Below, piece after piece: positions 2,103 to 61,657 of a DNA stretch of 64,000 nucleotides. A program made the position numbers and the translations under genes. How positions within the stretch are numbered: the first letter of the stretch is position 1; every line of letters begins with the position of its first letter. The notes beneath the pieces were generated by a model that ran no database searches, was not told where the DNA came from, and saw only the letters and a list, made by a program, of their open reading frames with translations. This DNA comes from Candidatus Marinacidobacterales bacterium (GTDB lineage Bacteria; Acidobacteriota; Vicinamibacteria; Marinacidobacterales; SMYC01). Where the stretch lies: NCBI GenBank assembly GCA_965224085.1, contig CBDCYI010000004.1, positions 1,248,001 through 1,312,000 on the forward strand. The letters run 5' to 3'.

Positions 2103-2995
2103 TCAGGTTACTTCTGTAAACTCCGCGTCGACGACGTCTTCGTCGGCGCTCGGCGCCGAGCCGTCGTTAGCCGGTTCGCCGCTTGATGGCTCGGCTTCCT
2201 TTTTCGCGTAGAGTCTTTCGGCCATAGCGTGCGCCGCCTTGGTGAGGCGTTCCTCGGCCGCCTGAATGGCCTCGAGGTCGCCGCTATCGAGCTTGGCCTT
2301 GGCCTCCTCGAGAGCGCTTTCGACTTCCTGAACGATCGACGGTTCGAGGTCGTTCTTGTTCTCATCGAGGCTTTGCTGGGACGCGAAGATCGCAGTGTCG
2401 AGACGATTCCGTGCCTCCACCTCTTGACGAATCTTCTCATCCGCCTCACGGTGGGTCTCGGAATCCTTGACCATGCGCTCGATTTCCTCTTTGCTGAGGC
2501 CACTCGAGCTTTCGAGCGTGATGCTCTGCGCTTTGCCTGTGGTGACATCCTTGGCACTGACGTTGACGATGCCGTTGGCGTCGATGTCAAACGAGACTTC
2601 GATTTGGGGCACGCCCCGGGGAGCGGGCGGGAGACCGACGAGCTGGAATTCTCCCAACGTTCGGTTGTCCTTGGCCATCTCGCGCTCGCCCTGTAGCACG
2701 TGCACGCCCACGCTCGGCTGGCTGTCCACCGCGGTCGAGAAAATTTCGCTCTTCTCGACCGGGATCGTGGTGTTGCGGTCGATGAGCTTCGTGAAGACGC
2801 CGCCCAGGGTCTCGATGCCGAGCGAAAGAGGCGTGACGTCGAGCAGTAGCATGTCCTTGACGTCACCTTGCATAACGCCACCTTGAATGGCGGCGCCGAT
2901 GGAGACGATCTCGTCCGGGTTGACGCCCTTGTGGGGGTCCTTCCCGAAGAGTTCTTTCACCATTTCTTGGACTTTGGGGATTCGCGTCGAGCCGC
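2103..2995 (-). pseudogene. dnaK: DnaK 3' half only, cut by an IS903-group element
   Basis: [49 protein letters not shown] and the C-terminal DVVDAEF; homology stops at the IS end (2996). Confidence 0.93.
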
Positions 2996-4082
2996 TGCCT
3001 TGGTGCACAACTCGCGATCTCGGTCCACAATTGTCCTTTACTCACGGATTCGAGGTTCCCCATGAGCATTTTCAAACGCACTCAGCGGAAGTATGTGAAG
3101 AAGGCCTATCGCGTGAGGAATTGGCGTGAATATGAGGCGGGTCTACGCAACCGTGGGAGCCTGACCGTCTGGATCTCGCTCACCGCCGGCAAGCTTGTGA
3201 ACTGGGACGCGCCCCGGCCGAGGAGGAGGAAACCGGGCCGTCAACGCAAGTACTCGAACCACGCCATCGAGACGGCTGTCACCCTGGGCATGGTGTTTCA
3301 TCTGTCATCTAGGCAGAGCGAGGGATTGCTGCGGTCGTTGTTCGCTCTGATGAAGCTAGACAATGATGTGCCCGATCACACCACGATCTCGAGGCGCAAG
3401 GCGAAGCTGGGTAAGGTCCCCTTCTACCAAGACAAGCAGAAGACGCCGTTGCACATCTTGTTCGACAGCAGCGGTCTCGCTGTCCACGCCGGCCAGCTGC
3501 GCAGAGCACCAAATAGCAGGGACTATCGCAAGCTCCATCTGTGTGTCGACGAGCAGAGTGGCGAAGTCGTCGCCGGCGAGCTGACGAGCAAAAGAGCCCG
3601 CGATTCATCGCGGGTTGCATCGCTTGTCGGACAGAGCGACAGTCCCATCTCATCGGCCAGAGCTGACACCGCATACGACGCCAGCGGCGTCTATGAGGCA
3701 ATCGAGAATCACAGCGCTCATCGCTCGCCGAGGGTGCTGATACCGCCGCGCAAAGGCGCCCAGCTCGCATCGGGGCCGGCGAGCAGCCGACAGCGCAATC
3801 GCAACATTGCAGCACAAGCTCGGCTCGGCAAACGAAAGTGGCACACAGAATCGGGCTACAGCAAACGGAGCAAAGTCGAGACAACGTTCCATCGCTACAA
3901 GGCTATCGTGGGCTCAGCGATGCGAGCGAGAGGGTTGGCGGCACAGAGAGTCGAGGCAAGGATCGGGTGCAAGATTCTCAACACCATGACGGCGCTCGGG
4001 ATGCCTGATAGCGAGATGATCGGATGATGGGAGTCGGGGCCAAGCGAGCTCTCGGCCTCTATCGGAGTTGTGCACCAAGGCA
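2996..4082 (+). mobile_element. IS5-family, IS903-group insertion sequence, copy 1 (1087 bp)
   Basis: Perfect 18-bp terminal IRs TGCCTTGGTGCACAACTC (2996-3013) and GAGTTGTGCACCAAGGCA (4065-4082); near-identical copies at 30405 and 60571; no target duplication. Confidence 0.93.
3062..4027 (+). CDS. IS903-group DDE transposase
   Basis: NWREYEAGLRNRGSLTVW, PDHTTISRR, DSSG, RKLHLCVD, DTAYD, GYSKRSKVETTF. Confidence 0.92.
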   Translation: MSIFKRTQRKYVKKAYRVRNWREYEAGLRNRGSLTVWISLTAGKLVNWDAPRPRRRKPGRQRKYSNHAIETAVTLGMVFHLSSRQSEGLLRSLFALMKLDNDVPDHTTISRRKAKLGKVPFYQDKQKTPLHILFDSSGLAVHAGQLRRAPNSRDYRKLHLCVDEQSGEVVAGELTSKRARDSSRVASLVGQSDSPISSARADTAYDASGVYEAIENHSAHRSPRVLIPPRKGAQLASGPASSRQRNRNIAAQARLGKRKWHTESGYSKRSKVETTFHRYKAIVGSAMRARGLAAQRVEARIGCKILNTMTALGMPDSEMIG

Positions 4083-30404: not shown

Positions 30405-31491
30405 TGCCTTGGTGCACAACTCGCGATCTCGGTCCACAATTGTCCTTTACTCACGGATTCGAGGTTCCCCATGAGCATTTTCAAACGCACTCAGCGGAAG
30501 TATGTGAAGAAGGCCTATCGCGTGAGGAATTGGCGTGAATATGAGGCGGGTCTACGCAACCGTGGGAGCCTGACCGTCTGGATCTCGCTCACCGCCGGCA
30601 AGCTTGTGAACTGGGACGCGCCCCGGCCGAGGAGGAGGAAACCGGGCCGTCAACGCAAGTACTCGAACCACGCCATCGAGACGGCTGTCACCCTGGGCAT
30701 GGTGTTTCATCTGTCATCTAGACAGAGCGAGGGATTGCTGCGATCGTTGTTCGCTCTGATGAAGCTAGACAATGATGTGCCCGATCACACCACGATCTCG
30801 AGGCGCAAGGCGAAGCTGGGTAAGGTCCCCTTCTACCAAGACAAGCAGAAGACGCCGTTGCACATCTTGATCGACAGCAGCGGTCTCGCTGTCCACGCCG
30901 GCCAGCTGCGCAGAGCACCAAATAGCAGGGACTATCGCAAGCTCCATCTGTGTGTAGACGAGCAGACTGGCGAAGTCGTCGCCTGCGAGCTGACGAGCAA
31001 AAGAGCCCGCGATTCATCGCGGGTTGCATCGCTTGTCAGACAGATCGACAGTCCCATCTCATCGGCCAGAGCTGACACCGCATACGACGCCAGCGGCGTC
31101 TATGAGGCAATCGAGAATCACAGCGCTCATCGCTCACCGAGGGTGCTGATACCGCCGCGCAAGGGCGCCCTGCTCGCATCGGGGCCGGCGAGCAGCCGAC
31201 AGCGCAATCGCAACATTGCAGCACAAGCTCGGCTCGGCAAACGAAAGTGGCACACAGAATCGGGCTACAGCAAACGGAGCAAAGTCGAGACAACGTTCCA
31301 TCGCTACAAGGCTATCGTGGGCTCAGCGATGCGAGCGAGAGGGTTGGCGGCACAGAGAGTCGAGGCAAGGATCGGGTGCAAGATTCTCAACACCATGACG
31401 GCGCTCGGGATGCCTGATAGCGAGATGATCGGATGATGGGAGTCGGGGCCAAGCGAGCTCTCGGCCTCTATCGGAGTTGTGCACCAAGGCA
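30405..31491 (+). mobile_element. IS903-group element, copy 2 (1087 bp)
   Basis: Same 18-bp IRs; flanks GCTCTGGCG and GCGGCGCAG differ, so no target duplication. Confidence 0.93.
30471..31436 (+). CDS. IS903-group DDE transposase
   Basis: Near-identical to 3062..4027. Confidence 0.92.
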   Translation: MSIFKRTQRKYVKKAYRVRNWREYEAGLRNRGSLTVWISLTAGKLVNWDAPRPRRRKPGRQRKYSNHAIETAVTLGMVFHLSSRQSEGLLRSLFALMKLDNDVPDHTTISRRKAKLGKVPFYQDKQKTPLHILIDSSGLAVHAGQLRRAPNSRDYRKLHLCVDEQTGEVVACELTSKRARDSSRVASLVRQIDSPISSARADTAYDASGVYEAIENHSAHRSPRVLIPPRKGALLASGPASSRQRNRNIAAQARLGKRKWHTESGYSKRSKVETTFHRYKAIVGSAMRARGLAAQRVEARIGCKILNTMTALGMPDSEMIG

Positions 31492-31883
31492 GCGGCGCAG
31501 CGGCGCTTGTCGCGTCGGGTGGAGTGCTGAACGTTGCCTCGCTGGTGGGTTTTATCACCCTTTTCGGTATCGCCGTCAGAAACGGCATCCTGCTCGTCAG
31601 CCACTATAATCGCCTGATGCTAGAAGGTGAGCCTCGCCGGGAAGCGGTCTTTCGCGGCTCTATCGAACGTCTGAATCCTATCCTCATGACGGCGTTGACG
31701 GCGGCTCTCGCGCTCATGCCACTCGCTATCGGCGGAGGTGAGGCCGGAAAGGAGATCCAGTCCCCGATGGCGGTCGTCGTCCTTGGAGGACTTCTGAGCT
31801 CGACCGCCCTCAACATGATTGTAGTGCCCGCTCTTTTTGTTCGCTACGGGAAGCCGGCGCGCGTCGCGGAAGTCCTTGAATGA
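31492..31883 (+). pseudogene. C-terminal remnant of a CusA/CzcA RND efflux permease
   Basis: [37 protein letters not shown]; begins at the IS end. Confidence 0.88.
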
Positions 31884-35494: not shown

Positions 35495-35737
35495 TCTCGA
35501 CACGTCAGCGTGGATCACCGAATCGGCGAGCGCCGAACGGAACACCCCCGTTCGCGTGAAGGACGTCTATTCGATGAAGAGCTTCACTTCGCCGCTTTCT
35601 TTCAGCGAAATAACCGTTTGGATGCCGGTCTGAATCTCTTCCTGTTTCAAGTGATGGGATGGACTCCTCCGCTGACATAGACGGCATCGATGTGCCAAAG
35701 TCAGTCGAAAGAACGCATCGAAAAAGGAGGAGTCCGA

Positions 35738-36772
35738 ATGAAAGATACGACGATCGCTGTGGGTCTTGCAAAGAACGTCTTCGAGATTGCCATCTCGCGC
35801 GAAGCGGGGAAGGTGTCCAAGCAACTCCGTGTGAGTCGACCCAAGTTGGTGTCGTTTTTTGCGAAACAGAGCGCTGCCACCGTGCTTCTTGAAGCCTGCG
35901 GCTCGGCTCACTTCTGGGCAAGGACGTTGCAACGGTTGGGACACGACGTCGTCCTGCTCCCACCTCACCTCGTAAGGCCGTATCGACGCGGGAGCAAGAA
36001 CGACCGCGCGGACACCAAAGCTTTGCTCGAGGCTTACCGGAACGAGGAGATTCTTTCGGTGCCCATCAAGTCCGTGCGCCAGCACACCCTCGCCGCGCTC
36101 CATCGCCTACGCTCAGGATGGCTCTCCACACGGACCGCACGCATCAATGCCGTACGCGGGATCCTGCGCGAGCTCGGACTCTTCATCCCCAAGGGCGCTC
36201 ACTTCGTCGTGCCCGCCATCTCCGAACTCGTCGAAGACGCTGATTCTGATTTGCCCGACGTGCTCCGTCCGCACCTGCGTGATGCGTGCTCCGAGATTCG
36301 AGAGCTCAAGGACAAGTGCGCTGGCATCGAGCACGAGCTCAAGGCGCTCGCCAAGCAGCTTCCTGAGGTGCAACGACTTCTCACCATTCCCGGCATCGGA
36401 CTTCTGACCGCGACCGCCATCGTCGGCTTCGTTGGGGATCTGCGCCGCTTCCCATCGGGACGCCGCTTCTCGAGTTACCTCGGCCTCGTTCCCAAAGAGA
36501 ACTCCAGTGGTGACATTCGCCGCCTCGGGCGCATCACCAAGCGTGGCGACTCCTACCTCCGTACGCTCCTCACGCAGGGCGGACGCGCCGTGCTCCGAGC
36601 GGCCAACGTCAGCAAGAGCCCGCCCGACAAGCTCCGCGCCTGGGCGCGGAAGGTCCACCGCTCGCGGGGACACAACAAAGCCGCGATTGCTGTCGCCAAC
36701 AAACTCGCCCGGATAGTCTGGGCCGTCTCCACCCGCGAGAGTGAATTCCAGTCGGTGCCCGCGGCCGCATAG
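35738..36772 (+). CDS. IS110/IS1111 recombinase; first DEDD aspartate reads as Gly
   Basis: VGLAK (expected DLAK), LEACG, KNDRAD, IPGIG, SYLGLVPKENSSG, ITKRGDSYLR, AVANKLAR; SD GGAGG. Confidence 0.92.
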   Translation: MKDTTIAVGLAKNVFEIAISREAGKVSKQLRVSRPKLVSFFAKQSAATVLLEACGSAHFWARTLQRLGHDVVLLPPHLVRPYRRGSKNDRADTKALLEAYRNEEILSVPIKSVRQHTLAALHRLRSGWLSTRTARINAVRGILRELGLFIPKGAHFVVPAISELVEDADSDLPDVLRPHLRDACSEIRELKDKCAGIEHELKALAKQLPEVQRLLTIPGIGLLTATAIVGFVGDLRRFPSGRRFSSYLGLVPKENSSGDIRRLGRITKRGDSYLRTLLTQGGRAVLRAANVSKSPPDKLRAWARKVHRSRGHNKAAIAVANKLARIVWAVSTRESEFQSVPAAA

Positions 36773-39089: not shown

Positions 39090-39583
39090 TTAACGGCCTC
39101 TGAGCCCGGACCGGAGGCGGAGAGCCTGTTTCCTTCCTTCCGCCGCATCCGCTACGGGAGCATCTTCCCATTGGTAGGTTCGCTCGTTGGCGTATTCTTC
39201 GAACCATTCCAGCTCCGCGTTCATCTTGAACAGCTGATGACGTAGCTCCCTCCAGCCGTGCGGCTCCCTTGGCGCGATGTAGAGACGCGTTGGAACCCCG
39301 TTTGCTTTGAGCGCCCGGTACAGCTCCACCGATCGGGGCGACGGGACGCGGACGTCTTTCTCGCCCACCAGGATTAGAATCGGCGTCTTGATCTTCGCGA
39401 CGTCCTTTAACGGGGACTGCTCCCAGTAGAGATCGGTCGGCGCATCTTTCTGCCAAGGAGTACCTCGAAACCAGGGTGTGCGGTAATAGCGCACGTCACT
39501 CTGCGCGTACATGGACACGAAGTTCACGATGCCGGCCCCCGAAGAAGCGGCCTTGAAACGATCGGTCATGGTAAGAGCCGCTC
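39090..39583 (-). pseudogene. C-terminal remnant of an S9 peptidase
   Basis: TDRFKAAS, SPL, GEKDVRVP, PREPHG; the nucleophile GxSxG and everything upstream are missing. Confidence 0.8.
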
Positions 39584-39941
39584 GGTTGAGATCGTACTCC
39601 GTAGGACAGCCGGAAGTCGAGAGCGAGGCGATGCGCTTTTCTCGGGGGGTCCGGGCGATGGTCCTCTCCACTTCCATTTGCGGGCTGGATCGTCATGCTG
39701 AGTAGCGTCGTCCAAACCCAATGGGTGACTGAAGGGGACCACACGTACGTCGAAATCGAGGGGCTAGGAACGGCGGACGCGCGTTTCGTGTGAGGTCGCC
39801 GCCCTCGGTTGTCACGGCGGGCGGTTGGTGGCACAGTTCGAGGCGCCATGGCTATCAAATTTTCCTCCGTCCCGTCGTCGGCTGTGAATCCGAACCCCTA
39901 CCTCGTTTTACTTGCGCTTTTAACCCTAATCGAACAATAAT

Positions 39942-48464: not shown

Positions 48465-49796
48465 TCAATTCTCCGAAATCCGGTACAGGTGACGATAGCC
48501 CCGGAGATACATCTCGTCACCGACGATCGCGGGAGACGCGTCGAAGCCGTCGTCCAGGGAGTTCGTTGCGAGGATCTCGAGCTCGGGGCCATTGTCGAGA
48601 ACGAGTGCGTTGCCGTCGCGGCCGAGGATGTAGACACGGCCGTTCACCCCGACGGGCGACGAGTAGATCTCGTAAATGCCTTCGAGCCGTACCGGACCGT
48701 AATGCGCTTCGCCCGTCTTCGCGTCGCGAGCGGTCAGGATTCCGTTGTTGCTCTTCACGAGATACAGGATGTCCTCGTAAAGAAGAGGAGAGGGGACATA
48801 GGGTGTATCCCGGTCGACTTGCCAGAGAATGGCCGAGGTGTCCGTGATGTCGCCTTTGGCCTCGGATAAACGAGCGGCGAAAGCGGCGTTGCCGCGAAAG
48901 CCGCTCGTAACGTACACGATACCGTCCTTTTCGACGGGCGACGGGATGGCGTTCAAGGTGAGACCCGGTCCGGACCAGACGATCTCGCCGGTCTCCAAGT
49001 CGTAGCTCGTCACGTTCTTCGTTCCTGTGGCGATGACTTGAGAACGGCCGGCGTGATCGACGACGAGGGGCGTGCCCCAAGAGCTGACTTCGTCGCGAGC
49101 TTGGTGCCAAACCTCCTCGCCGCTGTTCTTGTCGAGCGCGGCGATGAAAGACTCGCGTTCGTGGTCCCATTGGACGACGACGACGTCTCCATGAAGCGCC
49201 GGTGACGCGCCTTCGCCGAAGCCGCCCCGCGTGTACAAGTCGCCGAAATCTTTGCTCCACTTCAAGTTGCCTTCCATGTCATAGGCGTAGAGGCCCCAGG
49301 AGTTGAAATAAGCGAGAAGGATCTCGCCGTCGGTCATGGCGGAGGCGGAAGCGTAGCTGTTATTGGCTTGCTTGCCGTCGTGTGGCATGGCTTTCGTCGC
49401 GGTCCGCTCCCAAGCGAGGCTCCCGTCGGCGCGGTTCAGAACGAGAAGCTTGAACTCCTGCTCGATCGATGTGGGCGGCGGCCCGCCGCGGCGACGCCTT
49501 TGCCCTTGCGGCGCGTTCGGGTTCGCGTGCGGCGCCAGCGGAGCGACAGATCCGTCGGTCGGAATCGCCGTCAAGATGTAGAGGTGCTCGCCCCAAATGA
49601 TGGGCGTCGAAGAGCCCTGGCCCGGCAGCGCGACTTTCCACTTTACGTTTTTTTCCTCGCTCCACTCGATGGGTGGGTTGGCGTCCTTCGCGATCCCGTC
49701 CATGCGCGAGCCTCGCCAACGCGTCCAATTGCCGTCCTCTGAAAAAAGCGTCGTCGCCACGAAACAGAGACAGATGCCAATGCCTAGCCTTTTCAT
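48465..49796 (-). CDS. Secreted PQQ-like beta-propeller protein
   Basis: Signal peptide, NWTRWRG, GSSTPIIWG, GEGASP, SWGTP, YVPSPL, YSSPV, ASPAI. Confidence 0.88.
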   Translation of the reverse strand: MKRLGIGICLCFVATTLFSEDGNWTRWRGSRMDGIAKDANPPIEWSEEKNVKWKVALPGQGSSTPIIWGEHLYILTAIPTDGSVAPLAPHANPNAPQGQRRRRGGPPPTSIEQEFKLLVLNRADGSLAWERTATKAMPHDGKQANNSYASASAMTDGEILLAYFNSWGLYAYDMEGNLKWSKDFGDLYTRGGFGEGASPALHGDVVVVQWDHERESFIAALDKNSGEEVWHQARDEVSSWGTPLVVDHAGRSQVIATGTKNVTSYDLETGEIVWSGPGLTLNAIPSPVEKDGIVYVTSGFRGNAAFAARLSEAKGDITDTSAILWQVDRDTPYVPSPLLYEDILYLVKSNNGILTARDAKTGEAHYGPVRLEGIYEIYSSPVGVNGRVYILGRDGNALVLDNGPELEILATNSLDDGFDASPAIVGDEMYLRGYRHLYRISEN

Positions 49797-49909: not shown

Positions 49910-50638
49910 TCACGACGGCAACAGCCCGAGGTGTTGGCACGCCAGGACGTATTTCGACGACCGGGTTACCCAGGGTTCGAGGGGGTGGAGGAGATCACGG
50001 ATGCGCTCTTCGTGACCAAACGGAGCTTTCCCTTCGAGGATCGTTAAGCCGGGGACACGCGCGGGGAAGCGGCGGCTCGGATACAGCCCGCCCTGTCCCC
50101 AGCAGGTGAGGTCGCGGTCGAGCGTGATGCGGATGGGGCCATCCAATGCTTCGTAGTACGTGCGCTCGTACTCGATCAGGAGCTTGGGCTCCGAGCGGGC
50201 TCGCAGGTGCTCCCGTAGGCGCGCCGGAAGAACGCGCGCGAGTCCGACGACGATCTCGTGAAAGGGCATCGAAGCGAGCGAGGCGCCAGGTACTATCGGC
50301 GCTCTCTCTTTGAAGATCCCGTCATCCTCGCGACGTTTGACTTCGAAAAAGAACCTCTTTTCCGGAAACGGGGTATCGTACCAACGGATGCGGGTCTTCG
50401 TGCGCCGCGACGTTCCGTCGAGGTTGGCGCGGCAAGCGCTCAGGGCCGCGTCGTCGAAATAGATGCTGCACACACGCGACCTCGCGCCTCCGTAGCTTAC
50501 GCGGCGGCAATTGACGTCCAGTATGGAGCGAAACTTCCCGGCGTCCACATTCGGAAGCGAGAACTTTAGCTCACGGCGCCCAGGTGCGGCGGCGCTCGCT
50601 GCCTCGAGAGCAAACGACAACGCGTCAGGGGATCTCAT
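49910..50638 (-). CDS. VTC-domain polyphosphate polymerase (CYTH/TTM fold)
   Basis: RRELKF, SIYFDD, KTRIRWY, FEVKRR, KER, YER, RITLD, ILEGK, SKY. Confidence 0.88.
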   Translation of the reverse strand: MRSPDALSFALEAASAAAPGRRELKFSLPNVDAGKFRSILDVNCRRVSYGGARSRVCSIYFDDAALSACRANLDGTSRRTKTRIRWYDTPFPEKRFFFEVKRREDDGIFKERAPIVPGASLASMPFHEIVVGLARVLPARLREHLRARSEPKLLIEYERTYYEALDGPIRITLDRDLTCWGQGGLYPSRRFPARVPGLTILEGKAPFGHEERIRDLLHPLEPWVTRSSKYVLACQHLGLLPS

Positions 50639-51812
50639 CAGCCTCGACAAACGAGAACTGGAACGCGGGGAGCTTTTTTCGTATGTCTGCGACGAGGCGG
50701 GCCACGCCGCGAGGGCCCGTGACCGTAACCACGGCCGAGAGCTCTACGCGGTCGCCTTCCTGCTCGAGTCTCCGCATCCGGAACTCTTGGACGACGGAAG
50801 GTATCTGCTCGAGAGCACGCTGCTCAAAGAACCGATCGGCATCGCCGGAAACGACGAGAAGGAGCGTCCTGTCTGGCATCCGCGGCCACAGCCGTTGTCG
50901 CACGACCACGAAAAGGGAGACGAGCACGACGACCGCGACCGCCAGAGGGCGTTGGCGCGCCCCGAGGGCCACACCCACGGCGATGCAAAACAACAGATAG
51001 GCGATCTCGTCTGGCGTCTTGATGGCGGTGCGAAAGCGAACGACCGAAAGTGCACCGATGAGCCCGAGCGACAGAGCGAGTGACGACTCCACGACGACGA
51101 TGACCAGAACGGTCGTGAGGGTGAACACGGGAAACAGCTTGCCGAACGCGTGGCGATTCGATGGGACGGGGGCGAAGCCGATATAGAGACCGCGTATAAC
51201 GAGCGCCAAAAAGCCAGCCAGGATGAGATTCGTGGCGAGACTCACGCCTTGGTTGTAGTCGGCTCCACCTTGTTCCAGAAGCCAGGATTCCGCATCGAGC
51301 GTGAGATCGCCCGCCGCTTTCGCGAGCATACGTCCCGGGCTCGAGACGAGCGCGAGCTCCCCCCAGACCGTCCGGACCCGGTCGGCCCACAGAATATCGA
51401 CATTACGATCCTCGGGCGTACGCGTGACGAGCACGAGCACGACCCGCTCTTCCGACCACGCGCTCAAGTCCACAACGCGCGAGTGCCAGCGGTTGGCGTC
51501 GCCGAATCGAAAGACCTCGTTGAAAACCTCGACGGAGTCGTCTTCCGCTTCGACGATGACCCCAAAGGAAACGCGGGCGCGGCGGACGTTCTGCTCGGTG
51601 ACGAGCGCCGGCGAAACACGGAGAAAAGCCGCACTCGGGAGATCCACCTCGAAACGGCGCTCGGCGGGAAAAGGAAGCACCAAGGCATCATGTGCAGCAC
51701 CCGAGAGCTCGAACCGCGCGCGCTCCGCCAGATCGCCGCGCTCGACGAGCGATGTCCGAGGTTCCTCACATCCGGAAAGCGTCAGGACGATGAGGATGAC
51801 TGCCCGATTCAC
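50625..51812 (-). CDS. DUF4956 membrane protein with N-terminal lipoprotein/extracytoplasmic domain
   Basis: GTG start overlapping the CotH stop; LTLSGC lipobox; SSLALSLGLIGALSVVRFRTAIK..EIAYLL..IAVG; C-terminal ACT-like domain. Confidence 0.85.
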   Translation of the reverse strand: MNRAVILIVLTLSGCEEPRTSLVERGDLAERARFELSGAAHDALVLPFPAERRFEVDLPSAAFLRVSPALVTEQNVRRARVSFGVIVEAEDDSVEVFNEVFRFGDANRWHSRVVDLSAWSEERVVLVLVTRTPEDRNVDILWADRVRTVWGELALVSSPGRMLAKAAGDLTLDAESWLLEQGGADYNQGVSLATNLILAGFLALVIRGLYIGFAPVPSNRHAFGKLFPVFTLTTVLVIVVVESSLALSLGLIGALSVVRFRTAIKTPDEIAYLLFCIAVGVALGARQRPLAVAVVVLVSLFVVVRQRLWPRMPDRTLLLVVSGDADRFFEQRALEQIPSVVQEFRMRRLEQEGDRVELSAVVTVTGPRGVARLVADIRKKLPAFQFSFVEADEIP

Positions 51813-53767
51813 GAGGTCTCCGTAATAGCGCGCAATGCGCTCCATTCCATTCCGTCCCGGGCGCGCGTCTTGAGCTTCGTCGTGCCTTCGAGCGCGATGC
51901 TATCACCGCTTCGCAGGCGTTTTGCCTGGCTCGAGACAGCTCCGCCGATCGCGCGAGGGTCGCTACCATCGCGGGTCACATAAATCTCGACGCCTTGGGT
52001 TTGGACCAGCGTAACCGACGATGTGGAAATCCTCGTGGGCTCGGGCGGGTCGATCCGCGGGTAATAGTCCTCTTGTCTCAAGACTTCGATGAAGTGCGAG
52101 ACGTTTCCCGTCATCACTTCTTCGACCCTTCTTACCTGTGGCAAGAAAGTGTCGTTCCGCGTCCTTGTCGGCTCGCCGAGCGCCTTGCGTGCATCGCCCC
52201 AGCGGGCAGATTCCGCGACCACGGCTGACTCGATATAAGCCACAAGTCGCCTCCAACGCGCAATCGAGCGCTCTTCGGTGAGCGCACCATGGAAACAGTG
52301 TTGATAGACTCGATCGGCGAATAGCGTCATGAACTCGCGACTCTGCGCGAGCGCGTGCCAGATCCCGACCATGTCCCCCGATCGCGTGGCCGCGGCCCGG
52401 GTGAAGAGTCCGTGCACCCACGCCATGGGCGTGTCACCCGAGAACAAAGTATATTCCGCATCCCACATGAAGTAGCGGAACGGGCCCGGCGGGTTGTTTC
52501 TATTACCCCCATACCAGTTTCGATCGGGTCCCCAGTCGTAGAGTCTCGAGTACCACGCGAGAATGATGTAGTCGACGAAATGCTCGACGTCCAAAGATTG
52601 CTGAAGTTCCCGATAATTCTGGAGGACCCGCATGTCTTTGTTTTTCAACGGTCCGCGAAGGTAATGCCATCGCCTATCGTCACCGTGCAGTACGCCGTTG
52701 TGATTCACAGCCATCCAGTCCGACTGCTCACCTCCTAAATGTGCCGATGTGAACCATCCGTCCGGACGCTCGGCCGCGTTGTAGAGACCCCAGTAGAAAC
52801 CATTCAGATACAGATGGACGAACGTCCCGTGCGCGCCGAGCTCGGTCATCGCGATCTCCGTATCGCGTGTCCACTGATCCCTCGCGTAGGTCGTCTCGCC
52901 GGCGTCGTGGCCCGCGAAGGAGCGCGTGTGGCCCGAGCGCAATACGAGCCGATCGAACTTGGTCGTGGCCGATTTTCCGTTGAGAGGAGCGTCCTGCATG
53001 AGCTTCGAGCGGAGTTTGCCAACCCCATACTCATTCTTGAAAACGAGTTTGAGCGCTCGTTTGGCGCCGTAGCCTGCATGCGACTCGACGGCGCAATCGA
53101 CCTGGAAACCGCGATCGGGTAGGTGCGGATAGATGAGCTCAACCGATGCGGGGCCCCTCCCGGGCTTCGCTTGGCTCCGGAAATAGACGCCGCTTTCCGA
53201 GCGCTTCAGATTACCATCATCGGAGAACACTTGGCCGAATAGATCTTGCTTGTCCATCACGACGGAAAGCGACGGAATCGCTTTCATAGCGGAGAAGATC
53301 TCGCGACGATAATCCACGTGATCCACGATTGCGGGGTCCATCTCGTAGTCGAATTCAGTCAAACCGCCCATGCCGATCCCGCCTATCGAGGTCGGAAATC
53401 CGCTCGGGTAGCGGGGCTGTCTGACGACGTGCTTCGGAAAAATGTAGGTGTGGGTGTCGACATTACTCGGCGTGAGCCCTCTCTTGTACGCCATCGCGCG
53501 CAGCGTCGTCGTGCTATCGATCCTCACGACAACGGGGTTCTCGTCGCCGAGACCGTGCGTCGGGCTCGGCGCGCTTCCATCGGTAGTGTATCGAACACGG
53601 GCGCCTTCGGTGCCGGACTGGATGACAACTGCAAAACCCGAATCGTAGAAACCGCGCTCCCGGTTGAAACGCGTATCGGCCACGACGTTTTGAGCGGCGG
53701 CGCCAGCGAGTGACGACAGGACGACGGAAACGAAAGCCGCCATCGTCCTAGGAAGAAACGGATGCAT
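51809..53767 (-). CDS. Secreted CotH-family kinase flanked by chitobiase/Fn3-like domains
   Basis: Signal peptide; RYTTDGSAP and YVTRDGSDP; FVHLYLNGFYWGLYNAAERP; DW...NWY...WDAE; AESARWGD. Confidence 0.85.
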   Translation of the reverse strand: MHPFLPRTMAAFVSVVLSSLAGAAAQNVVADTRFNRERGFYDSGFAVVIQSGTEGARVRYTTDGSAPSPTHGLGDENPVVVRIDSTTTLRAMAYKRGLTPSNVDTHTYIFPKHVVRQPRYPSGFPTSIGGIGMGGLTEFDYEMDPAIVDHVDYRREIFSAMKAIPSLSVVMDKQDLFGQVFSDDGNLKRSESGVYFRSQAKPGRGPASVELIYPHLPDRGFQVDCAVESHAGYGAKRALKLVFKNEYGVGKLRSKLMQDAPLNGKSATTKFDRLVLRSGHTRSFAGHDAGETTYARDQWTRDTEIAMTELGAHGTFVHLYLNGFYWGLYNAAERPDGWFTSAHLGGEQSDWMAVNHNGVLHGDDRRWHYLRGPLKNKDMRVLQNYRELQQSLDVEHFVDYIILAWYSRLYDWGPDRNWYGGNRNNPPGPFRYFMWDAEYTLFSGDTPMAWVHGLFTRAAATRSGDMVGIWHALAQSREFMTLFADRVYQHCFHGALTEERSIARWRRLVAYIESAVVAESARWGDARKALGEPTRTRNDTFLPQVRRVEEVMTGNVSHFIEVLRQEDYYPRIDPPEPTRISTSSVTLVQTQGVEIYVTRDGSDPRAIGGAVSSQAKRLRSGDSIALEGTTKLKTRARDGMEWSALRAITETS

Positions 53768-53857
53768 ATCGATCGACCCAGCGAGTTTAGCGGTTGACAT
53801 GGCCGCTGGCCAGCAGGACTGTTTGGAGGAACTCAAGGTGAGATACAATCGCTCGTC

Positions 53858-54529
53858 ATGTGGCCCCAGAATCTAGGACCGGAGCTTACCATGGTCCTCA
53901 ACTGCGCGGTGAACATGCTCATCGGTGGAGCTCTCGCGCTCTACATCCGAGAGCTCTATAAGCGCTTCGGCACCTCCATCTCCAACCGTGACAATTTCTC
54001 CGGTGTGTTCCCGATGCTCACCATGGTGACGGTCGTCATCATCTTCGTCGTGAAGTCCTCGCTGGCACTTTCCTTGGGTTTGGTCGGGGCGCTCTCGATC
54101 GTCCGCTTCCGCGCGGCGATCAAGACATCGGAGGAGCTCGTTTATCTCTTTTTGTGCATCGGGGTCGGGCTCGCGCTCGGCGCCGAGCACCGATTGCTCG
54201 CCGCGGTTGCCGTGGTCATCGTCACGATCTTCGTCGTCGGCCGGCGCGTTCTCGGGTGGAGCGCGTCGCGGCAGAACCTTCTCCTGACCGTCATCGGCGA
54301 TGCCGAGCGCTTTGTCGAAACCGCTGACGAGGCCAGTATTGTCGAAGCTCTCGAGCGATTGACGGGCGGGCTGACGATTCAGAGATTTGATCTCGAGGAT
54401 GGCCAAGTGCAGATTCGAGCCAGAGTCACCCCGGGCGGCCCCAAAGAAACGACCCAGCTGATAACCGAGATCAAGAAGGAGTTCCCCCACCTCCAGGTTT
54501 CCTATGTGAACTTGGACTCGCTCGTGTAA
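53858..54529 (+). CDS. DUF4956 membrane protein (stand-alone)
   Basis: KSSLALSLGLVGALSIVRFRAAIKTSEELVYLF; paralog of 50625..51812. Confidence 0.9.
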   Translation: MWPQNLGPELTMVLNCAVNMLIGGALALYIRELYKRFGTSISNRDNFSGVFPMLTMVTVVIIFVVKSSLALSLGLVGALSIVRFRAAIKTSEELVYLFLCIGVGLALGAEHRLLAAVAVVIVTIFVVGRRVLGWSASRQNLLLTVIGDAERFVETADEASIVEALERLTGGLTIQRFDLEDGQVQIRARVTPGGPKETTQLITEIKKEFPHLQVSYVNLDSLV

Positions 54530-54546
54530 GAAGCGGACGCCACGAT

Positions 54547-55809
54547 CTAACGAATCGTTTCGGCTGAGGAAGCGGCTACGGATTCCCGGTAGCGAGCAAT
54601 CCGCTCCTCCAACACACTCGAAGAGCGCTCAAAGGATTGGCTCAATCGCTGCACGGTGTCTCGTATCGTAGCCTCCGCCGTCGCCCGGTCTGACTCGGGT
54701 GAGCCGTTTCCGTTCGGGAAGAGCTCTAACATTGCCGAAGCCACGTTTTCGCGCGCCATGAAAGGCAACAGCGCGTCGCTCGTTTCCCGAAGGATGTCGT
54801 CGAATATTCGAGGTTTGAGCCGGGTCTCGACGAGGTCCTCGAGCACGTCGACATATAGCGCGTAGCCAACCGGGTCGCCCAGCAGGATGTGGTCCCACTC
54901 CGCTTCGGCGCAGTAGGTGAGCTCGTAGGGGTCGCGAAACGCATATCGACCATCCAAATGGCACACGTTGAAGACGTCGTCTGGGTCCCAGGCGAAGAAC
55001 GTGTAATAGGGTCGGGCGCCGGCCTGCGGAGTCGGGTTGTCCTCCGCGAGCAACCACAGCTCGTCAACGGAATCTCCGTTCTGGAGGAGTGCGTTCGAAG
55101 CGATCCACAACAGATACTGGTCTAGATTCATGCGCTCGCGAAAGCGGGCCACGAGTCGCTCTCCTGAAAGCCCCACGAATTCCTCGAGCGTTTTCTCGTA
55201 ATCAGCTCTCGCTTCCTGCTCACCCGTCCTCGAATATTTCACCTCCACTAGCGTCCTGACGGAAGAGAAGTTACGCCTCAGAAGCGCCCGTAGCCCGCTT
55301 CGCGAGAAGCGGATCCGATCCAATTTCTCAACGAGTAGATACACGCCTCGCGAGCTTCCGTTCAGCGTCAGCTCCACGTAGCGAAGCTGCATTGGAAAGA
55401 GTCCAAGTTGACTCCAGAGCTTGAGCACCGTGTGTTGGCGTACATAGCCGTGATCAAGGCACATGCTCAAAAGATAGAATTCGTCGGTCACCGAGTCGAG
55501 AGAGGCAAAGCGAGGCCGCTTCCCGTACAGGTTGAGCGTGTAGTTTCTTCGTGCGCAGCCAAACGAACCTTTGCCGCGCAGATGTGCCGTGGCTCTCGCC
55601 GCCTCCCAGTGCTCGCCCATCCGCACGGAGAGCGAGAAGTCACTCCGGTTCGATTGCTTGATTCTCCGCCCATACTCCTTCCATTCGGCGTCCGTGAAGA
55701 GAAAGTCCACCCGGTCTCGATTTGGCTCTTCAACAGTGCAAGCAGACTGAATAGCCGTCGCCAGCGTCAATAGCATCCCGGCTATTCGACGCCGTTTTTG
55801 CGCTTTCAC
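54547..55809 (-). CDS. CotH-family kinase, probable lipoprotein
   Basis: Basic N-region then AIQSAC; LRGKGS..RRNYTL, GVYLLVEK, NGD, AWDPDD; start uncertain. Confidence 0.8.
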   Translation of the reverse strand: MKAQKRRRIAGMLLTLATAIQSACTVEEPNRDRVDFLFTDAEWKEYGRRIKQSNRSDFSLSVRMGEHWEAARATAHLRGKGSFGCARRNYTLNLYGKRPRFASLDSVTDEFYLLSMCLDHGYVRQHTVLKLWSQLGLFPMQLRYVELTLNGSSRGVYLLVEKLDRIRFSRSGLRALLRRNFSSVRTLVEVKYSRTGEQEARADYEKTLEEFVGLSGERLVARFRERMNLDQYLLWIASNALLQNGDSVDELWLLAEDNPTPQAGARPYYTFFAWDPDDVFNVCHLDGRYAFRDPYELTYCAEAEWDHILLGDPVGYALYVDVLEDLVETRLKPRIFDDILRETSDALLPFMARENVASAMLELFPNGNGSPESDRATAEATIRDTVQRLSQSFERSSSVLEERIARYRESVAASSAETIR

Positions 55810-56034
55810 TTTGGTTACTTCCGATGGCCCATGTAGTCGGGACCACCGGTTATCGTACTCCACGGCGCGGCCCGACGTCTCGCCCAAGTCGTTTCTATGG
55901 CGATTCGCCGACTCGGCATGAGATTCGGCACGCTTTGCGCCGCCAGCAGCTCGGGGCGCGCTCCGAAGCGTTGGATCACACGCTCTTCTCCTGCCGTTGA
56001 TATCGCAACGAGCGTCCTTCGCCCTTCGTGGCTA

Positions 56035-56170
56035 TACCCATCGAACGACCTACGCGCGCGACCAGTGGGCGCGTGACGGCCTGATCGCGATGACGGGCTC
56101 TGGTTCGCGCAGTCTCTTCGTGCATTGGTACATCAACGGTCTCTATTGGGGCCTCTACAACGCCGTGGCA
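56035..56170 (+). pseudogene. Short internal remnant of a third CotH kinase
   Basis: TTYARDQWARDGLIAM...FVHWYINGLYWGLYNA aligns with TTYARDQWTRDTEIAM...FVHLYLNGFYWGLYNA of the 51809 gene. Confidence 0.8.
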
Positions 56171-56215
56171 AGAGGGACAACAGTGAGTCCTATACTGCGG
56201 TATATTTAGCGCTTC

Positions 56216-57436
56216 GTGTCTTTGAAATTCCTCATCTTGTTCGCGCTTCTCACAGAGCCCCAAGCGGAGCATGCGTTTCTGCGCGACAAGATCCTCGGCA
56301 TGCTCGTCGGCTCCGCGATCGGCGATGCGATGGGCGCGCCGAGCGAGATGTGGACACGCGAGCAGATCCAGGCCGAGTACGGGTTCGTAAAGGACCTTCA
56401 TCCCAGGATGACGAAGCCCTCACCCGAGGGAACGTGGGAGCTCAACGTCCGCGCCGGCACTACCACTGACGACACGCGTTGGAAGGCGCTAGCTATCGAT
56501 TACTTGAGCGGAGCGGGTGACGGCGAGCTCCACGCGAAAGACTTTGCCGCCTATTTGTCCTCGCGCTTCGCGGCCGAGATCGAAGAGCTGCGCCGACTCA
56601 CCATGGACGACCCCGCCCCGGCGCTGATCGAAGGCGTCATGCGCTTGCAGTGGCTCGAGGAGTGGGAACGGGTTGCACGCGCGTATACGGACGGCGATAT
56701 CGACGAGTACTCGAGCGCGCTCAACCGATTCTACGGTGGTGAGATGGTGTGTGCCGGCATCCTGTTCGCGCCGGCTCTGGGCACGTTCTATCCAGGGGAG
56801 CCCGAAGCCGCGTATCGCAACACCTTCGCCGTCGACATCTACGATCTCGGCTACGCGAAGGACGTGAGTGCCATCACTGCGGCGATGATCGCTGCCGCGA
56901 TTCCGGAAGGCTCGACGCCGGAGTCGATCCTCGCCGTGCTATCGGAGGTCGACCCTCAGGGTTTTTTTGAGAGCCGCCTCATCGGGAGGCAGGCGTTCAA
57001 CATTCTCCGCGATGCCCGTGCCATTGCACACAGGGCGCGCGAGGTAGGGCTGACCAAAGATGCGCTGGCGCACGACCCGTGGGTTGACAGCGGGCACGAG
57101 CCTATCGAGCGCGCGCAGCTGAATGAAGCCTATCGGTTGCTCGACGAGCGGCAACAGCGCATGCCGTTTCATGCGGGCGAGATCCATCTCGTGAACTTGA
57201 CCGCACTCCTCTATAGCGATTTCGATTTTCGCGGCGCGCTCGAGTTCGTCGTCAACTATGGGCGCGACAACGACACGACGGCCGCTGTCGCCGGTGCCGT
57301 GGTGGGCGCGTTTTTGGGCGCCGAGCGGCTTCCGGGGAAGTGGGTGTCGACCGTCCTCGAGAGGAATCGCGCCATCGGGATCGACCTCGACGAACTGGCT
57401 GATCGCCTCGTCGCCGCGGTCGAAAACCGCCGATAG
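56216..57436 (+). CDS. ADP-ribosylglycohydrolase family protein with signal peptide
   Basis: GSAIGDAMG, TTDDT, GRDNDTTAAVAG. Confidence 0.88.
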   Translation: MSLKFLILFALLTEPQAEHAFLRDKILGMLVGSAIGDAMGAPSEMWTREQIQAEYGFVKDLHPRMTKPSPEGTWELNVRAGTTTDDTRWKALAIDYLSGAGDGELHAKDFAAYLSSRFAAEIEELRRLTMDDPAPALIEGVMRLQWLEEWERVARAYTDGDIDEYSSALNRFYGGEMVCAGILFAPALGTFYPGEPEAAYRNTFAVDIYDLGYAKDVSAITAAMIAAAIPEGSTPESILAVLSEVDPQGFFESRLIGRQAFNILRDARAIAHRAREVGLTKDALAHDPWVDSGHEPIERAQLNEAYRLLDERQQRMPFHAGEIHLVNLTALLYSDFDFRGALEFVVNYGRDNDTTAAVAGAVVGAFLGAERLPGKWVSTVLERNRAIGIDLDELADRLVAAVENRR

Positions 57437-60570: not shown

Positions 60571-61657
60571 TGCCTTGGTGCACAACTCCGATAGAGGCCG
60601 AGAGCTCGCTTGGCCCCGACTCCCATCATCCGATCATCTCGCTATCAGGCATCCCGAGCGCCGTCATGGTGTTGAGAATCTTGCACCCGATCCTTGCCTC
60701 GACTCTCTGTGCCGCCAACCCTCTCGCTCGCATCGCTGAGCCCACGATAGCCTTGTAGCGATGGAACGTTGTCTCGACTTTGCTCCGTTTGCTGTAGCCC
60801 GATTCTGTGTGCCACTTTCGTTTGCCGAGCCGAGCTTGTGCTGCAATGTTGCGATTGCGCTGTCGGCTGCTCGCCGGCCCCGATGCGAGCAGGGCGCCCT
60901 TGCGCGGCGGTATCAGCACCCTCGGCGAGCGATGAGCGCTGTGATTCTCGATTGCCTCATAGACGCCGCTGGCGTCGTATGCGGTGTCAGCTCTGGCCGA
61001 TGAGATGGGACTGTCGCTCTGTCCGACAAGCGATGCAACCCGCGATGAATCGCGGGCTCTTTTGCTCGTCAGCTCGCCGGCGACGACTTCGCCACTCTGC
61101 TCGTCGACACACAGATGGAGCTTGCGATAGTCCCTGCTATTTGGTGCTCTGCGCAGCTGGCCGGCGTGGACAGCGAGACCGCTGCTGTCGATCAAGATGT
61201 GCAACGGCGTCTTCTGCTTGTCTTGGTAGAAGGGGACCTTACCCAGCTTCGCCTTGCGCCTCGAGATCGTGGTGTGATCGGGCACATCATTGTCTAGCTT
61301 CATCAGAGCGAACAACGATCGCAGCAATCCCTCGCTCTGCCTAGACGACAGATGAAACACCATGCCCAGGGTGACAGCCGTCTCGATGGCGTGGTTCGAG
61401 TACTTGCGTTGACGGCCCGGTTTCCTCCTCCTTGGCCGGGGCGCGTCCCAGTTCACAAGCTTGCCGGCGGTGAGCGAGATCCAGACGGTCAGGCTCCCAC
61501 GGTTGCGTAGACCCGCCTCATATTCACGCCAATTCCTCACGCGATAGGCCTTCTTCACATACTTCCGCTGAGTGCGTTTGAAAATGCTCATGGGGAACCT
61601 CGTATCCGCGAGTACAGGACAATTGTGGACCGAGATCGCGAGTTGTGCACCAAGGCA
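60571..61657 (-). mobile_element. IS903-group element, copy 3 (1087 bp, inverted)
   Basis: Same 18-bp IRs; flanks CCTTTTCGT and ACGGATCGG, so no target duplication. Confidence 0.93.
60626..61591 (-). CDS. IS903-group DDE transposase
   Basis: Near-identical to the other two copies. Confidence 0.92.
   Translation of the reverse strand: MSIFKRTQRKYVKKAYRVRNWREYEAGLRNRGSLTVWISLTAGKLVNWDAPRPRRRKPGRQRKYSNHAIETAVTLGMVFHLSSRQSEGLLRSLFALMKLDNDVPDHTTISRRKAKLGKVPFYQDKQKTPLHILIDSSGLAVHAGQLRRAPNSRDYRKLHLCVDEQSGEVVAGELTSKRARDSSRVASLVGQSDSPISSARADTAYDASGVYEAIENHSAHRSPRVLIPPRKGALLASGPASSRQRNRNIAAQARLGKRKWHTESGYSKRSKVETTFHRYKAIVGSAMRARGLAAQRVEARIGCKILNTMTALGMPDSEMIG

Follow-up and report, generated by a model that had tools for sequence, protein, structure and literature searches.

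What process could unite a putative polyphosphate polymerase of the VTC family, membrane proteins of the DUF4956 family and exported kinase-like proteins of the CotH family in a single gene cluster? This question is raised by a locus at positions 49910-56173 of a 64,000-nucleotide stretch of a Candidatus Marinacidobacterales genome (GenBank assembly GCA_965224085.1, contig CBDCYI010000004.1, positions 1,248,001 to 1,312,000), referred to below as the window. All six elements that a sequence-only reading had described there were recovered using open reading frames (ORFs), Pfam and tblastn. By comparing the locus with related loci in other genomes, we found that the strict core is the DUF4956-VTC pair and that CotH is a frequent third member. 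As the best explanation of the whole, we tentatively favor a VTC enzyme that would be docked on DUF4956 at the membrane and would pass polyphosphate (polyP) outward, with the exported CotH proteins depending on this supply. The features under study are the following (aa, amino acids).

51809-53848, minus strand: CotH1, a maximal ORF of 679 aa; probable start at ATG 53767, followed by a signal peptide.
50625-51845, minus strand: DUF4956-long, with a Pfam DUF4956 match (1e-13) at residues 237-316; probable start at GTG 51812.
49910-50650, minus strand: VTC, a maximal ORF of 246 aa, reduced to 242 aa by the probable start at ATG 50638; Pfam PF09359, 3.6e-21.
53858-54529, plus strand: DUF4956-short (Pfam DUF4956, 8e-16), divergent from CotH1 and without the N-terminal extension.
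54547-55887, minus strand: CotH2, a maximal ORF (Pfam CotH, 1.6e-28), convergent with DUF4956-short across a gap of 17 nucleotides (nt).
56015-56173, plus strand: remnant of a third CotH gene, 53 codons that correspond to the middle of a CotH1-type protein of ~670 aa.
48465-49796, minus strand: PQQ_2-type beta-propeller protein (Pfam PQQ_2, 2e-21) with a signal peptide, encoded in the same orientation as VTC and 113 bp beyond it.

The DUF4956-VTC pair and its genomic neighborhood

Genome contigs, one genome per species, were scanned with the VTC profile, which gave 108 matching stretches, 105 relatives and a final set of 80 loci. Most of these loci come from Planctomycetota, and the others from Verrucomicrobiota, Acidobacteriota and a few further phyla. 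Genes were assigned using our own hidden Markov models (HMMs), which started from the window proteins and were refined in rounds on the loci; for DUF4956, the HMM was built from 69 unfused sequences. In 71 of the 80 loci, the gene immediately before VTC, in the same orientation, encodes DUF4956, and in three more (L006, L045 and L008) the two are fused in frame, with both domains confirmed by Pfam in L006. Two further loci, L005 and L056, proved to be adjacent on inspection, their VTC ORFs having been over-extended by ORF calling, which brings the adjacent or fused pairs to 76 of 80. Among the four exceptions, L003 and L066 are without upstream sequence, L029 contains no DUF4956 gene, and in L009 two copies are located downstream.

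CotH genes were found in 53 of the 80 loci (29/38 among those with at least 5 kb on each side), and in 45 loci CotH is the next gene after VTC in the same orientation. As an internal control, the DNA inside 4 kb of VTC (541,927 bp) was compared with the remaining DNA of the same loci (561,544 bp). The counts are 68 CotH ORFs inside versus 1 outside and 83 DUF4956 ORFs inside versus 2 outside, an enrichment of about 40- to 70-fold. The co-location is real, specific and far above chance. Hence the co-occurrence of the three families, as put forward in the sequence-only reading, is borne out as a conserved and enriched neighborhood, with the correction that CotH is not obligatory: in seven CotH-less loci (L026, L033, L034, L068, L069, L072, L076) the gene after VTC encodes instead an exported PPDK_N/ATP-grasp protein, and other loci have neither, VTC being followed elsewhere by housekeeping genes that are unrelated.

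Gene fusions provide a second line of evidence for the core pair. Eight of eight longer VTC homologs (the search was limited to longer proteins) carry PF16316 together with PF09359, and a further fusion, P0067, is 398 aa long. In a domain map of 11 fusion-type proteins, nine consist of a complete DUF4956, 25-50 residues and then VTC, and two have the membrane part alone before VTC. The 706-aa protein P0185 starts with a lipoprotein signal and an N-domain of the window DUF4956-long type and continues with DUF4956 and then VTC, so that the window's two genes are found in one chain. From these fusions and from gene adjacency, which are indirect but strong evidence, VTC very probably docks on DUF4956 at the membrane. 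The fusions also imply that the C-terminus of DUF4956 lies on the ATP side, i.e. in the cytoplasm, in agreement with the lipobox and the odd number of helices described below. A complex prediction for DUF4956-long residues 193-406 with VTC (score 0.00, mark 0.32) was made without controls, gives no verdict and was not used.

The translational coupling of CotH1, DUF4956-long and VTC that had been read from the window is confirmed by two overlaps. The stop codon TGA of CotH1 overlaps a GTG codon (GTGA), and the same GTG is, by homolog alignment, the probable start of DUF4956-long; the ATG at 50638 fits the N-termini of VTC homologs and leaves an overlap of 14 nt with the end of DUF4956-long. A promoter and terminator scan was uninformative (no promoters, and 8 terminator-like sites versus 6.7 expected). 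The nearest relatives of the locus proteins are from Acidobacteriota (Vicinamibacteria, Candidatus Marinacidobacterales), and none of the five locus proteins is named by NCBIfam. The VTC protein had no match in a plasmid collection.

The related loci show several further arrangements. In two Marinacidobacterales loci (L006, 9242-18513; L045, 9278-16237), a larger cluster consists of a DUF4956-VTC fusion, two more DUF4956 genes and three CotH genes, the middle CotH of L045 being called as a pair of ORFs. The window appears to be a reduced version of this larger cluster, in which the third CotH has been lost. In two other acidobacterial loci (L001, 9962-10741; L074, 9971-10736), VTC is broken into two ORFs, for which a frameshift, a pseudogene or an assembly error is possible. 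In Pirellulaceae-type loci (e.g. L010, 5100-8971, minus strand), an extracytoplasmic-function (ECF) sigma factor (11 loci) and a Ser/Thr kinase-TPR protein of ~1000 aa (15 loci) are encoded divergently upstream of DUF4956-VTC-CotH; this position suggests that the Pirellulaceae-type modules are controlled by an ECF regulon. Finally, the PQQ_2 beta-propeller family occurs directly downstream of VTC in L060, L062 and L071 and elsewhere in eight more loci. The beta-propeller protein of the window is possibly an accessory member, or it belongs merely to a common family.

The VTC enzyme and its DUF4956 partner

The window VTC protein scores 76.2 bits against Pfam PF09359 (cut-off 23) and covers profile positions 14-232 of 235. 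When a profile of 24 family members was compared with PDB, yeast Vtc4 was retrieved with an E-value of 1.4e-10. In this profile alignment, counted by hand, Vtc4 residues K200, R264, R266, K281, K294, Y359, R361 and R373 fall on window residues K29, R87, R89, K105, K114, Y161, R163 and R174, respectively. The equivalents of K29, R87, R89, K105, Y161 and R163 are kept in 123-128 of 128 sequences (at least 96%); this alignment comprised the window protein and 127 of the 149 best representatives, i.e. those of 215-330 aa. The triphosphate ligands of Vtc4 needed for polyP in vivo are K200, R264, R266, K281, R361, K458, S457 and Y359, with E426 as the Mn ligand (bioRxiv 10.1101/2023.01.27.525886), and the dead Vtc4 enzyme of the Nature Communications structure paper is the triple mutant R264A/R266A/E426N.

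The AF2 model of the window protein (pLDDT 88.9, pTM 0.86) retrieved the Vtc4 chains 5iiq, 3g3q and 3g3r as top Foldseek matches (E 3e-11 to 5e-11, TM 0.60-0.66). Other triphosphate tunnel metalloenzymes (TTMs), namely YgiF, archaeal TTMs, class IV cyclases and triphosphatases, match the model at E 1e-6 to 1e-4, and at best 1e-6. As modeled, VTC is a closed beta-barrel tunnel that is nearest to Vtc4 by five orders of magnitude, and its Vtc4-like fold and alignable tunnel residues support the comparison with the yeast enzyme that had been drawn on first inspection. Neither an SPX domain nor any other Pfam domain beyond VTC and DUF4956 was found in the window VTC and DUF4956 proteins. Given the aligned residues and the nearest matches, we consider polyphosphate polymerase activity of VTC moderately likely. 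Stand-alone bacterial VTC proteins form a large family, with 11,819 representative clusters at E-values up to 0.001 and 5,543 at E-values up to 1e-10 in a profile search, and we found no biochemical test of this family in the literature.

DUF4956-long has a canonical lipobox (L-S-G-C), whose Cys is kept in most long homologs. Its AF2 model (pLDDT 83) contains, in order, a signal helix, a beta-sandwich (residues 30-168), five membrane helices (195-319) and a beta-alpha-beta-beta-alpha-beta domain (325-401). Since the conserved lipobox Cys puts the N-domain in the periplasm and five crossings follow, the C-domain is predicted to be cytoplasmic, and therefore the invariant R-F-R-x-x-I-K segment would face the cytoplasm as well. 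The motif that is invariant in DUF4956 is S-L-G-L-x-G-A-L-S-x-x-R-F-R. In Foldseek searches with the model, the N-terminal beta-sandwich matched carbohydrate-binding modules (CBMs) and the BcsB crown (E 2e-5 to 1e-3), a generic but suggestive signal, and nothing convincing was found for the membrane part. A DUF4956 profile retrieved nothing meaningful from PDB (best E 0.3).

A quick maximum-likelihood tree of 88 DUF4956 domains (IQ-TREE, with SH-aLRT supports only) splits the acidobacterial copies between two deep clades. The first clade (11 rows, SH-aLRT 99) holds the VTC-adjacent, fused or long copies. The second clade (77 rows, SH-aLRT 99) holds the short second copies, including the window gene at 53858-54529, together with the single-copy genes of other phyla (Planctomycetota, Verrucomicrobiota). 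A second DUF4956 paralog is present in nine of nine acidobacterial loci, and a script count found no second genuine DUF4956 beside the VTC-adjacent copy in the non-acidobacterial loci, the flags at L005 and L056 being over-extended VTC ORFs. A two-subunit DUF4956 assembly is thus plausible in Acidobacteriota and is not a general requirement. The earlier suggestion that VTC docks on a heteromeric DUF4956 membrane complex is accordingly kept for the linkage of the two families and withdrawn for heteromery as a general property, as the two paralogs are confined to the nine acidobacterial loci.

Exported CotH proteins and their alternatives

Both complete CotH proteins of the window belong to the Pfam CotH family. 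CotH1 matches it with 59.9 bits (3.8e-16; cut-off 23.8), is flanked by CHB_HEX_C_1 (1.5e-15, in two stretches) and Fn3_assoc (7e-14) matches, and has a signal-peptide-like segment after M28, i.e. a plain signal peptide. CotH2 scores 100.6 bits against the same cut-off, and its true start is probably internal, ahead of the hydrophobic segment. A Cys follows this hydrophobic N-terminal segment, but position -3 is Q, which makes a non-canonical lipobox, and the Cys is absent in two of three CotH2-type relatives (L045 and L064). Of the two lipoprotein labels assigned on first inspection, we therefore retain that of DUF4956-long, with its canonical lipobox and conserved Cys, and qualify that of CotH2.

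The catalytic residues were examined by alignment. CotH2 aligns with the Bacillus cereus CotH structure 5jd9 (E 9.5e-5), and the Asp of its Q-N-G-D stretch falls on B. cereus D224, which equals B. subtilis D228 through a hand-derived offset of four residues; the substitutions D228Q, at the catalytic Asp, and D251A, at the metal-binding Asp, inactivate the Bacillus CotH kinase (PMC7821199). The W-D motif and the catalytic-loop Asp are found in both CotH1 and CotH2, where CotH1 was placed by multiple alignment alone and W-D lies beyond the end of the 5jd9 alignment. Across an alignment of 63 CotH proteins, the catalytic-loop Asp is kept nearly throughout, and the flanking changes are lineage-specific. 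The likeness to Bacillus CotH (PDB 5jd9/5jda) consists of membership of both window proteins in Pfam CotH and of the aligned D228-equivalent Asp in CotH2. Unlike the Bacillus proteins, to which the similarity is weak, CotH1 and CotH2 carry signals for export as well as additional domains, and the B. cereus Asn five residues past the catalytic Asp is replaced in CotH2 and in many CotH proteins of the loci.

Export, as first proposed for CotH, is confirmed by the N-terminal hydrophobic segments. Among the 60 CotH ORFs that are 400 aa or longer and begin away from the edge of their locus, 57 have such a segment, and the three exceptions look like mis-called starts. The further premise that CotH proteins as such act outside the cytoplasm does not hold for the Bacillus prototype, which acts within the ATP-containing mother cell, at the surface of the forespore.

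The PPDK_N proteins, which follow VTC in place of CotH, have an N-terminal hydrophobic segment in seven of seven cases. They are 650-810 aa long and possess a signal peptide and an uncharacterized N-terminal half; many have EF-hands, and of the domains of PEP synthase they contain the PPDK_N ATP-grasp domain alone. The occurrence of two unlike exported nucleotide-binding phosphotransferase folds in one and the same slot is the best indirect argument for a module that serves chemistry outside the cytoplasm. In three of these loci, a further gene follows that of the PPDK_N protein, encoding a DUF4159 protein in L068 and L072 and an EF-hand protein in L026.

As for the possible target, the CBM-like domain of DUF4956-long and the hexosaminidase-type domains of CotH1 point to something rich in glycans. 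Planctomycete CotH proteins (e.g. L010, 10776-12743; L017, 10703-13762) carry N-terminal EF-hand pairs, some with a lamin-tail domain, and small EF-hand proteins are encoded after CotH in seven loci. Calcium binding beside a polyphosphate enzyme may be meaningful, or it may be merely typical of the phylum.

The remnant of the third CotH gene shares 62-68% identity with six CotH1-type proteins (tblastn, E 1.5e-21 to 9e-16) and is recognized by our CotH HMM with E 7.7e-14; tblastn detected no CotH similarity beyond it within 55880-56400. An ORF at 55976-56401 on the minus strand, which overlaps the remnant on the opposite strand and is without a Pfam match, was rejected as a shadow ORF. Elsewhere in the window, three 321-aa DDE_Tnp_1 transposase ORFs and one of the IS110 type were found (3062-4027, plus strand; 30471-31436, plus; 60626-61591, minus; and 35690-36772, plus), and beside several of the transposases there are gene fragments, namely an HSP70 C-terminal part (2103-3008, minus), an AcrB C-terminal part (31479-31883, plus) and a Peptidase_S9 part (39090-39677, minus). 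Transposases beside gene fragments suggest a genome rich in insertion sequences (IS) with gene decay ongoing, and the CotH remnant fits this picture. Starting 43 nt beyond the remnant, a gene for an ADP-ribosylglycohydrolase-family protein (56216-57436, plus strand; 1.2e-36) follows; the protein matches a glycine zipper and has a hydrophobic N-terminus, and the related loci gave no sign of a link with the system.

A proposed mechanism and its rivals

We propose that the core pair is a two-part membrane machine, in which DUF4956 would hold a cytoplasmic Vtc4-like tunnel enzyme against the inner side of the cytoplasmic membrane. On the analogy of the VTC complex of eukaryotes, VTC would most likely make polyphosphate from ATP, and the growing chain would be handed to a DUF4956 oligomer, built from two paralogs in Acidobacteriota and from one elsewhere, and so reach the periplasmic side. 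There, the exported CotH kinase-like proteins that the operon also encodes would have their targets in the envelope or in glycans, and their action would depend on that supply. Gene linkage, gene fusion, the Vtc4-like fold with its aligned residues, and the export signals are the observed parts of this scheme. For translocation through DUF4956, the analogy makes a weak to moderate case, and export of polyphosphate, considered by itself, is plausible, though less likely than not. The dependence of CotH on the exported product is weak as to its chemistry. A fuller version, in which DUF4956 and VTC would form a synthase-translocase with an unrelated membrane partner and exported CotH or ATP-grasp proteins would use the polymer as donor or substrate where there is no ATP, appears unlikely, and polyphosphate as the phosphoryl donor of CotH is a speculative long shot. 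In the papers that we found, neither a synthase-translocase role nor polyphosphate as a CotH donor is proposed or tested.

Several observations weigh against this mechanism. In 27 of the 80 loci CotH is absent from the locus DNA covered, and in at least L007, L029, L053, L073 and L080 unrelated genes follow VTC, which argues for a core module without need for CotH. DUF4956 has no detectable similarity to the membrane domains of Vtc1/3/4, as no VTC chain was found in PDB at E-values up to 10 by profile search or among the listed Foldseek hits; a DUF4956 conduit, if there is one, would therefore be analogous and not homologous to the eukaryotic channel. Both window DUF4956 proteins have sub-threshold matches to Pfam MgtC, of 16.2 and 14.4 bits (E 0.014 and 0.049; cut-off 31.4 bits), and MgtC is known to act as a regulator and not as a channel. 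The C-terminal third of VTC had no match in PDB, so that Vtc4 E426, S457 and K458 are not alignable by sequence; window E206-x-K208 and S232-K233-Y234 are invariant, and their correspondence to E426/K428 and S457/K458, respectively, comes from the pattern alone. Strand beta1 of the window protein reads R-x-E-x-K, and its Glu (E27) is shared by 124 of 128 sequences. Vtc4 carries Thr at this position, a possibly relevant difference, since E27 retains a portion of the acidic motif that characterizes hydrolytic TTM enzymes.

Genetic data from Streptococcus intermedius also count against it, and they render out of date the earlier statement that the gene set has no functional characterization. In the SIR_1592-1594 genes of this species, deletion of DUF4956 raised the level of the polysaccharide Pel, deletion of cotH lowered it, and both deletions cut aggregation; for deletion of the VTC/polymerase gene, no aggregation or Pel phenotype is reported (PMC12345266). 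The absence of a VTC phenotype argues against VTC as an obligate supplier of CotH. Taken together with the CotH-less loci, these results, with Pel shifted in opposite directions by the DUF4956 and CotH deletions (PMC12345266), argue against a strict linear pathway.

The first rival to be considered is a membrane-anchored but purely cytoplasmic module, in which DUF4956 would serve as an anchor or regulator of the MgtC kind and, through an ACT-like domain, would detect a metabolite and activate VTC; polyphosphate or a short product would remain in the cell, and the neighboring CotH genes would be co-regulated within an envelope or phosphate-stress regulon. This reading draws on the weak MgtC similarity of both DUF4956 proteins, on the Protein Atlas leads for DUF4956, which are weak and to MgtC only (0.75-0.79), on the regulatory-looking C-terminal domain, on the core pair without CotH in several loci, on the ECF sigma factor and Ser/Thr kinase divergently upstream in 11-15 Pirellulaceae-type loci, and on the S. 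intermedius VTC deletion without a reported phenotype; the DUF4956 homolog of that species has itself been described as an MgtC domain plus an ACT domain (PMC12345266). Like MgtC/SapB, DUF4956-long has several membrane helices followed by a small alpha/beta domain predicted to be cytoplasmic, and some source annotations call DUF4956 proteins YhiD-like; unlike in MgtC/SapB, the Pfam MgtC match stays below the cut-off, and the invariant motif given above defines DUF4956 itself. A purely cytoplasmic module leaves unexplained both the exported phosphotransferase-type gene after VTC (CotH in 45/80 and PPDK_N in 7/80 loci) and the periplasmic CBM-like domain of DUF4956-long, and we regard it as rather unlikely.

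A second rival overlaps the docked synthase with outward passage of polyphosphate and differs from it in the target alone. It posits a glycan-modifying machine, in which an exopolysaccharide or envelope glycan is phosphorylated by CotH or linked to phosphate or polyphosphate. The triad has indeed been published among the accessory genes of Gram-positive pel loci: in streptococci and clostridia, pelDEADAFG adjoins cotH, DUF4956, DUF4832 and a gene for a poly-phosphate polymerase, and bifidobacteria have a variant of this arrangement (Whitfield et al. 2020, PMC7112168). The altered Pel levels of the DUF4956 and CotH mutants (PMC12345266) point the same way, as do the CBM-like domain of DUF4956-long and the CHB_HEX_C/Fn3_assoc domains of CotH1. 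A Clostridium perfringens locus has been reported with two 'VTC domain' genes, each beside a membrane protein of 222-226 aa, plus a CotH gene (PMC2879425). The beta-sandwich matches are generic, however, and the gene content of the diderm loci speaks against a glycan machine. A Pfam scan of the ORFs found no pel, polysaccharide-synthase or ppk gene in the remaining 58 kb of the 64-kb window, and no Pel, glycosyltransferase or DUF4832 domain among its 55 non-overlapping ORFs of at least 110 aa, all of which were covered except for one that runs off the window start (1-858). No glycosyltransferase family was found among the gene clusters common to at least seven of the 80 loci, and no Pel-like family is common to the loci with CotH, which come from Planctomycetota, Verrucomicrobiota, Acidobacteriota and other phyla. 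We consider glycan modification as the specific target improbable.

The third rival, that VTC is no polymerase but a tunnel metalloenzyme of other function (a triphosphatase, a nucleotide cyclase or an enzyme of other phosphoanhydride chemistry) whose product or substrate is sensed or transported by DUF4956, could appeal to the conserved E27, to the matches of other TTM enzymes to the VTC model and to the lack of an SPX domain or other Vtc4 context, but it is improbable in view of the closest sequence and structure matches to Vtc4, Vtc2 and Vtc3 by five orders of magnitude, the retention of six of six alignable triphosphate-binding residues, and K233 in the S-K pair, which by pattern equals Vtc4 K458, a position occupied by I or L in the inactive Vtc2 and Vtc3 (bioRxiv 10.1101/2023.01.27.525886).

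Comparison with known systems shows what is shared and what is particular to this locus. With the Gram-positive pel accessory set it shares the adjacency of the three families and a secreted CotH with an Fn3-type domain (PMC7112168, PMC12345266). It differs in the absence of pel and DUF4832 from the window and in its diderm lineage, as well as in having two DUF4956 genes and two CotH genes plus a remnant, with one DUF4956 bearing a lipoprotein signal and a CBM-like domain. The authors of the S. intermedius study state that the three-gene synteny was not found outside pel loci (PMC12345266); here it was observed in Planctomycetota, Verrucomicrobiota, Acidobacteriota and other phyla without a common Pel-like family. 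New in the present analysis are the gene set in diderm phyla without pel, the fusion evidence, the two-paralog form in which one subunit is of the lipoprotein/CBM-like type, and the exported protein that can stand in for CotH.

With the eukaryotic VTC complex the locus shares the catalytic tunnel fold, with six of nine residues of the Vtc4 triphosphate/Mn2+ site aligned, and an enzyme tied to a multi-helix membrane protein, here by adjacency and natural fusions; the two membrane paralogs co-retained in Acidobacteriota recall the hetero-oligomeric VTC channel. Unlike that complex, the window has no SPX sensor, its catalytic chain is a stand-alone protein of 242 aa, its membrane partner DUF4956 has no sequence or fold match to VTC membrane domains in PDB, the bacterial fusions have the membrane domain first and the enzyme last, and the proposed target compartment is the periplasm and not the vacuole. 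The locus is thus eukaryotic VTC logic with an unrelated membrane partner, joined to exported kinases.

The module is a candidate source of the extracellular polyphosphate that bacteria make and release. PPK-independent extracellular polyphosphate without a known synthase has been described in the Bacillus cereus group, in strains said to be without a VTC4 homolog (2026 preprint 10.64898/2026.08.04.742738). If polyphosphate export by the docked enzyme were true, the module would be a second, independently assembled case of coupled synthesis and translocation beside the eukaryotic VTC complex, and it would account for exported kinase-fold proteins working where ATP is scarce. If the synthase-translocase were true together with use of the polymer as donor, it would amount to a PPK-independent route to extracellular polyphosphate by which kinases are run outside the cell. 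Even if export is false, the near-obligate DUF4956-VTC pair still gives two families of unknown role a concrete and testable function. In some bacteria, this gene set may be a route for placing polyphosphate or phosphoryl groups outside the cytoplasm.

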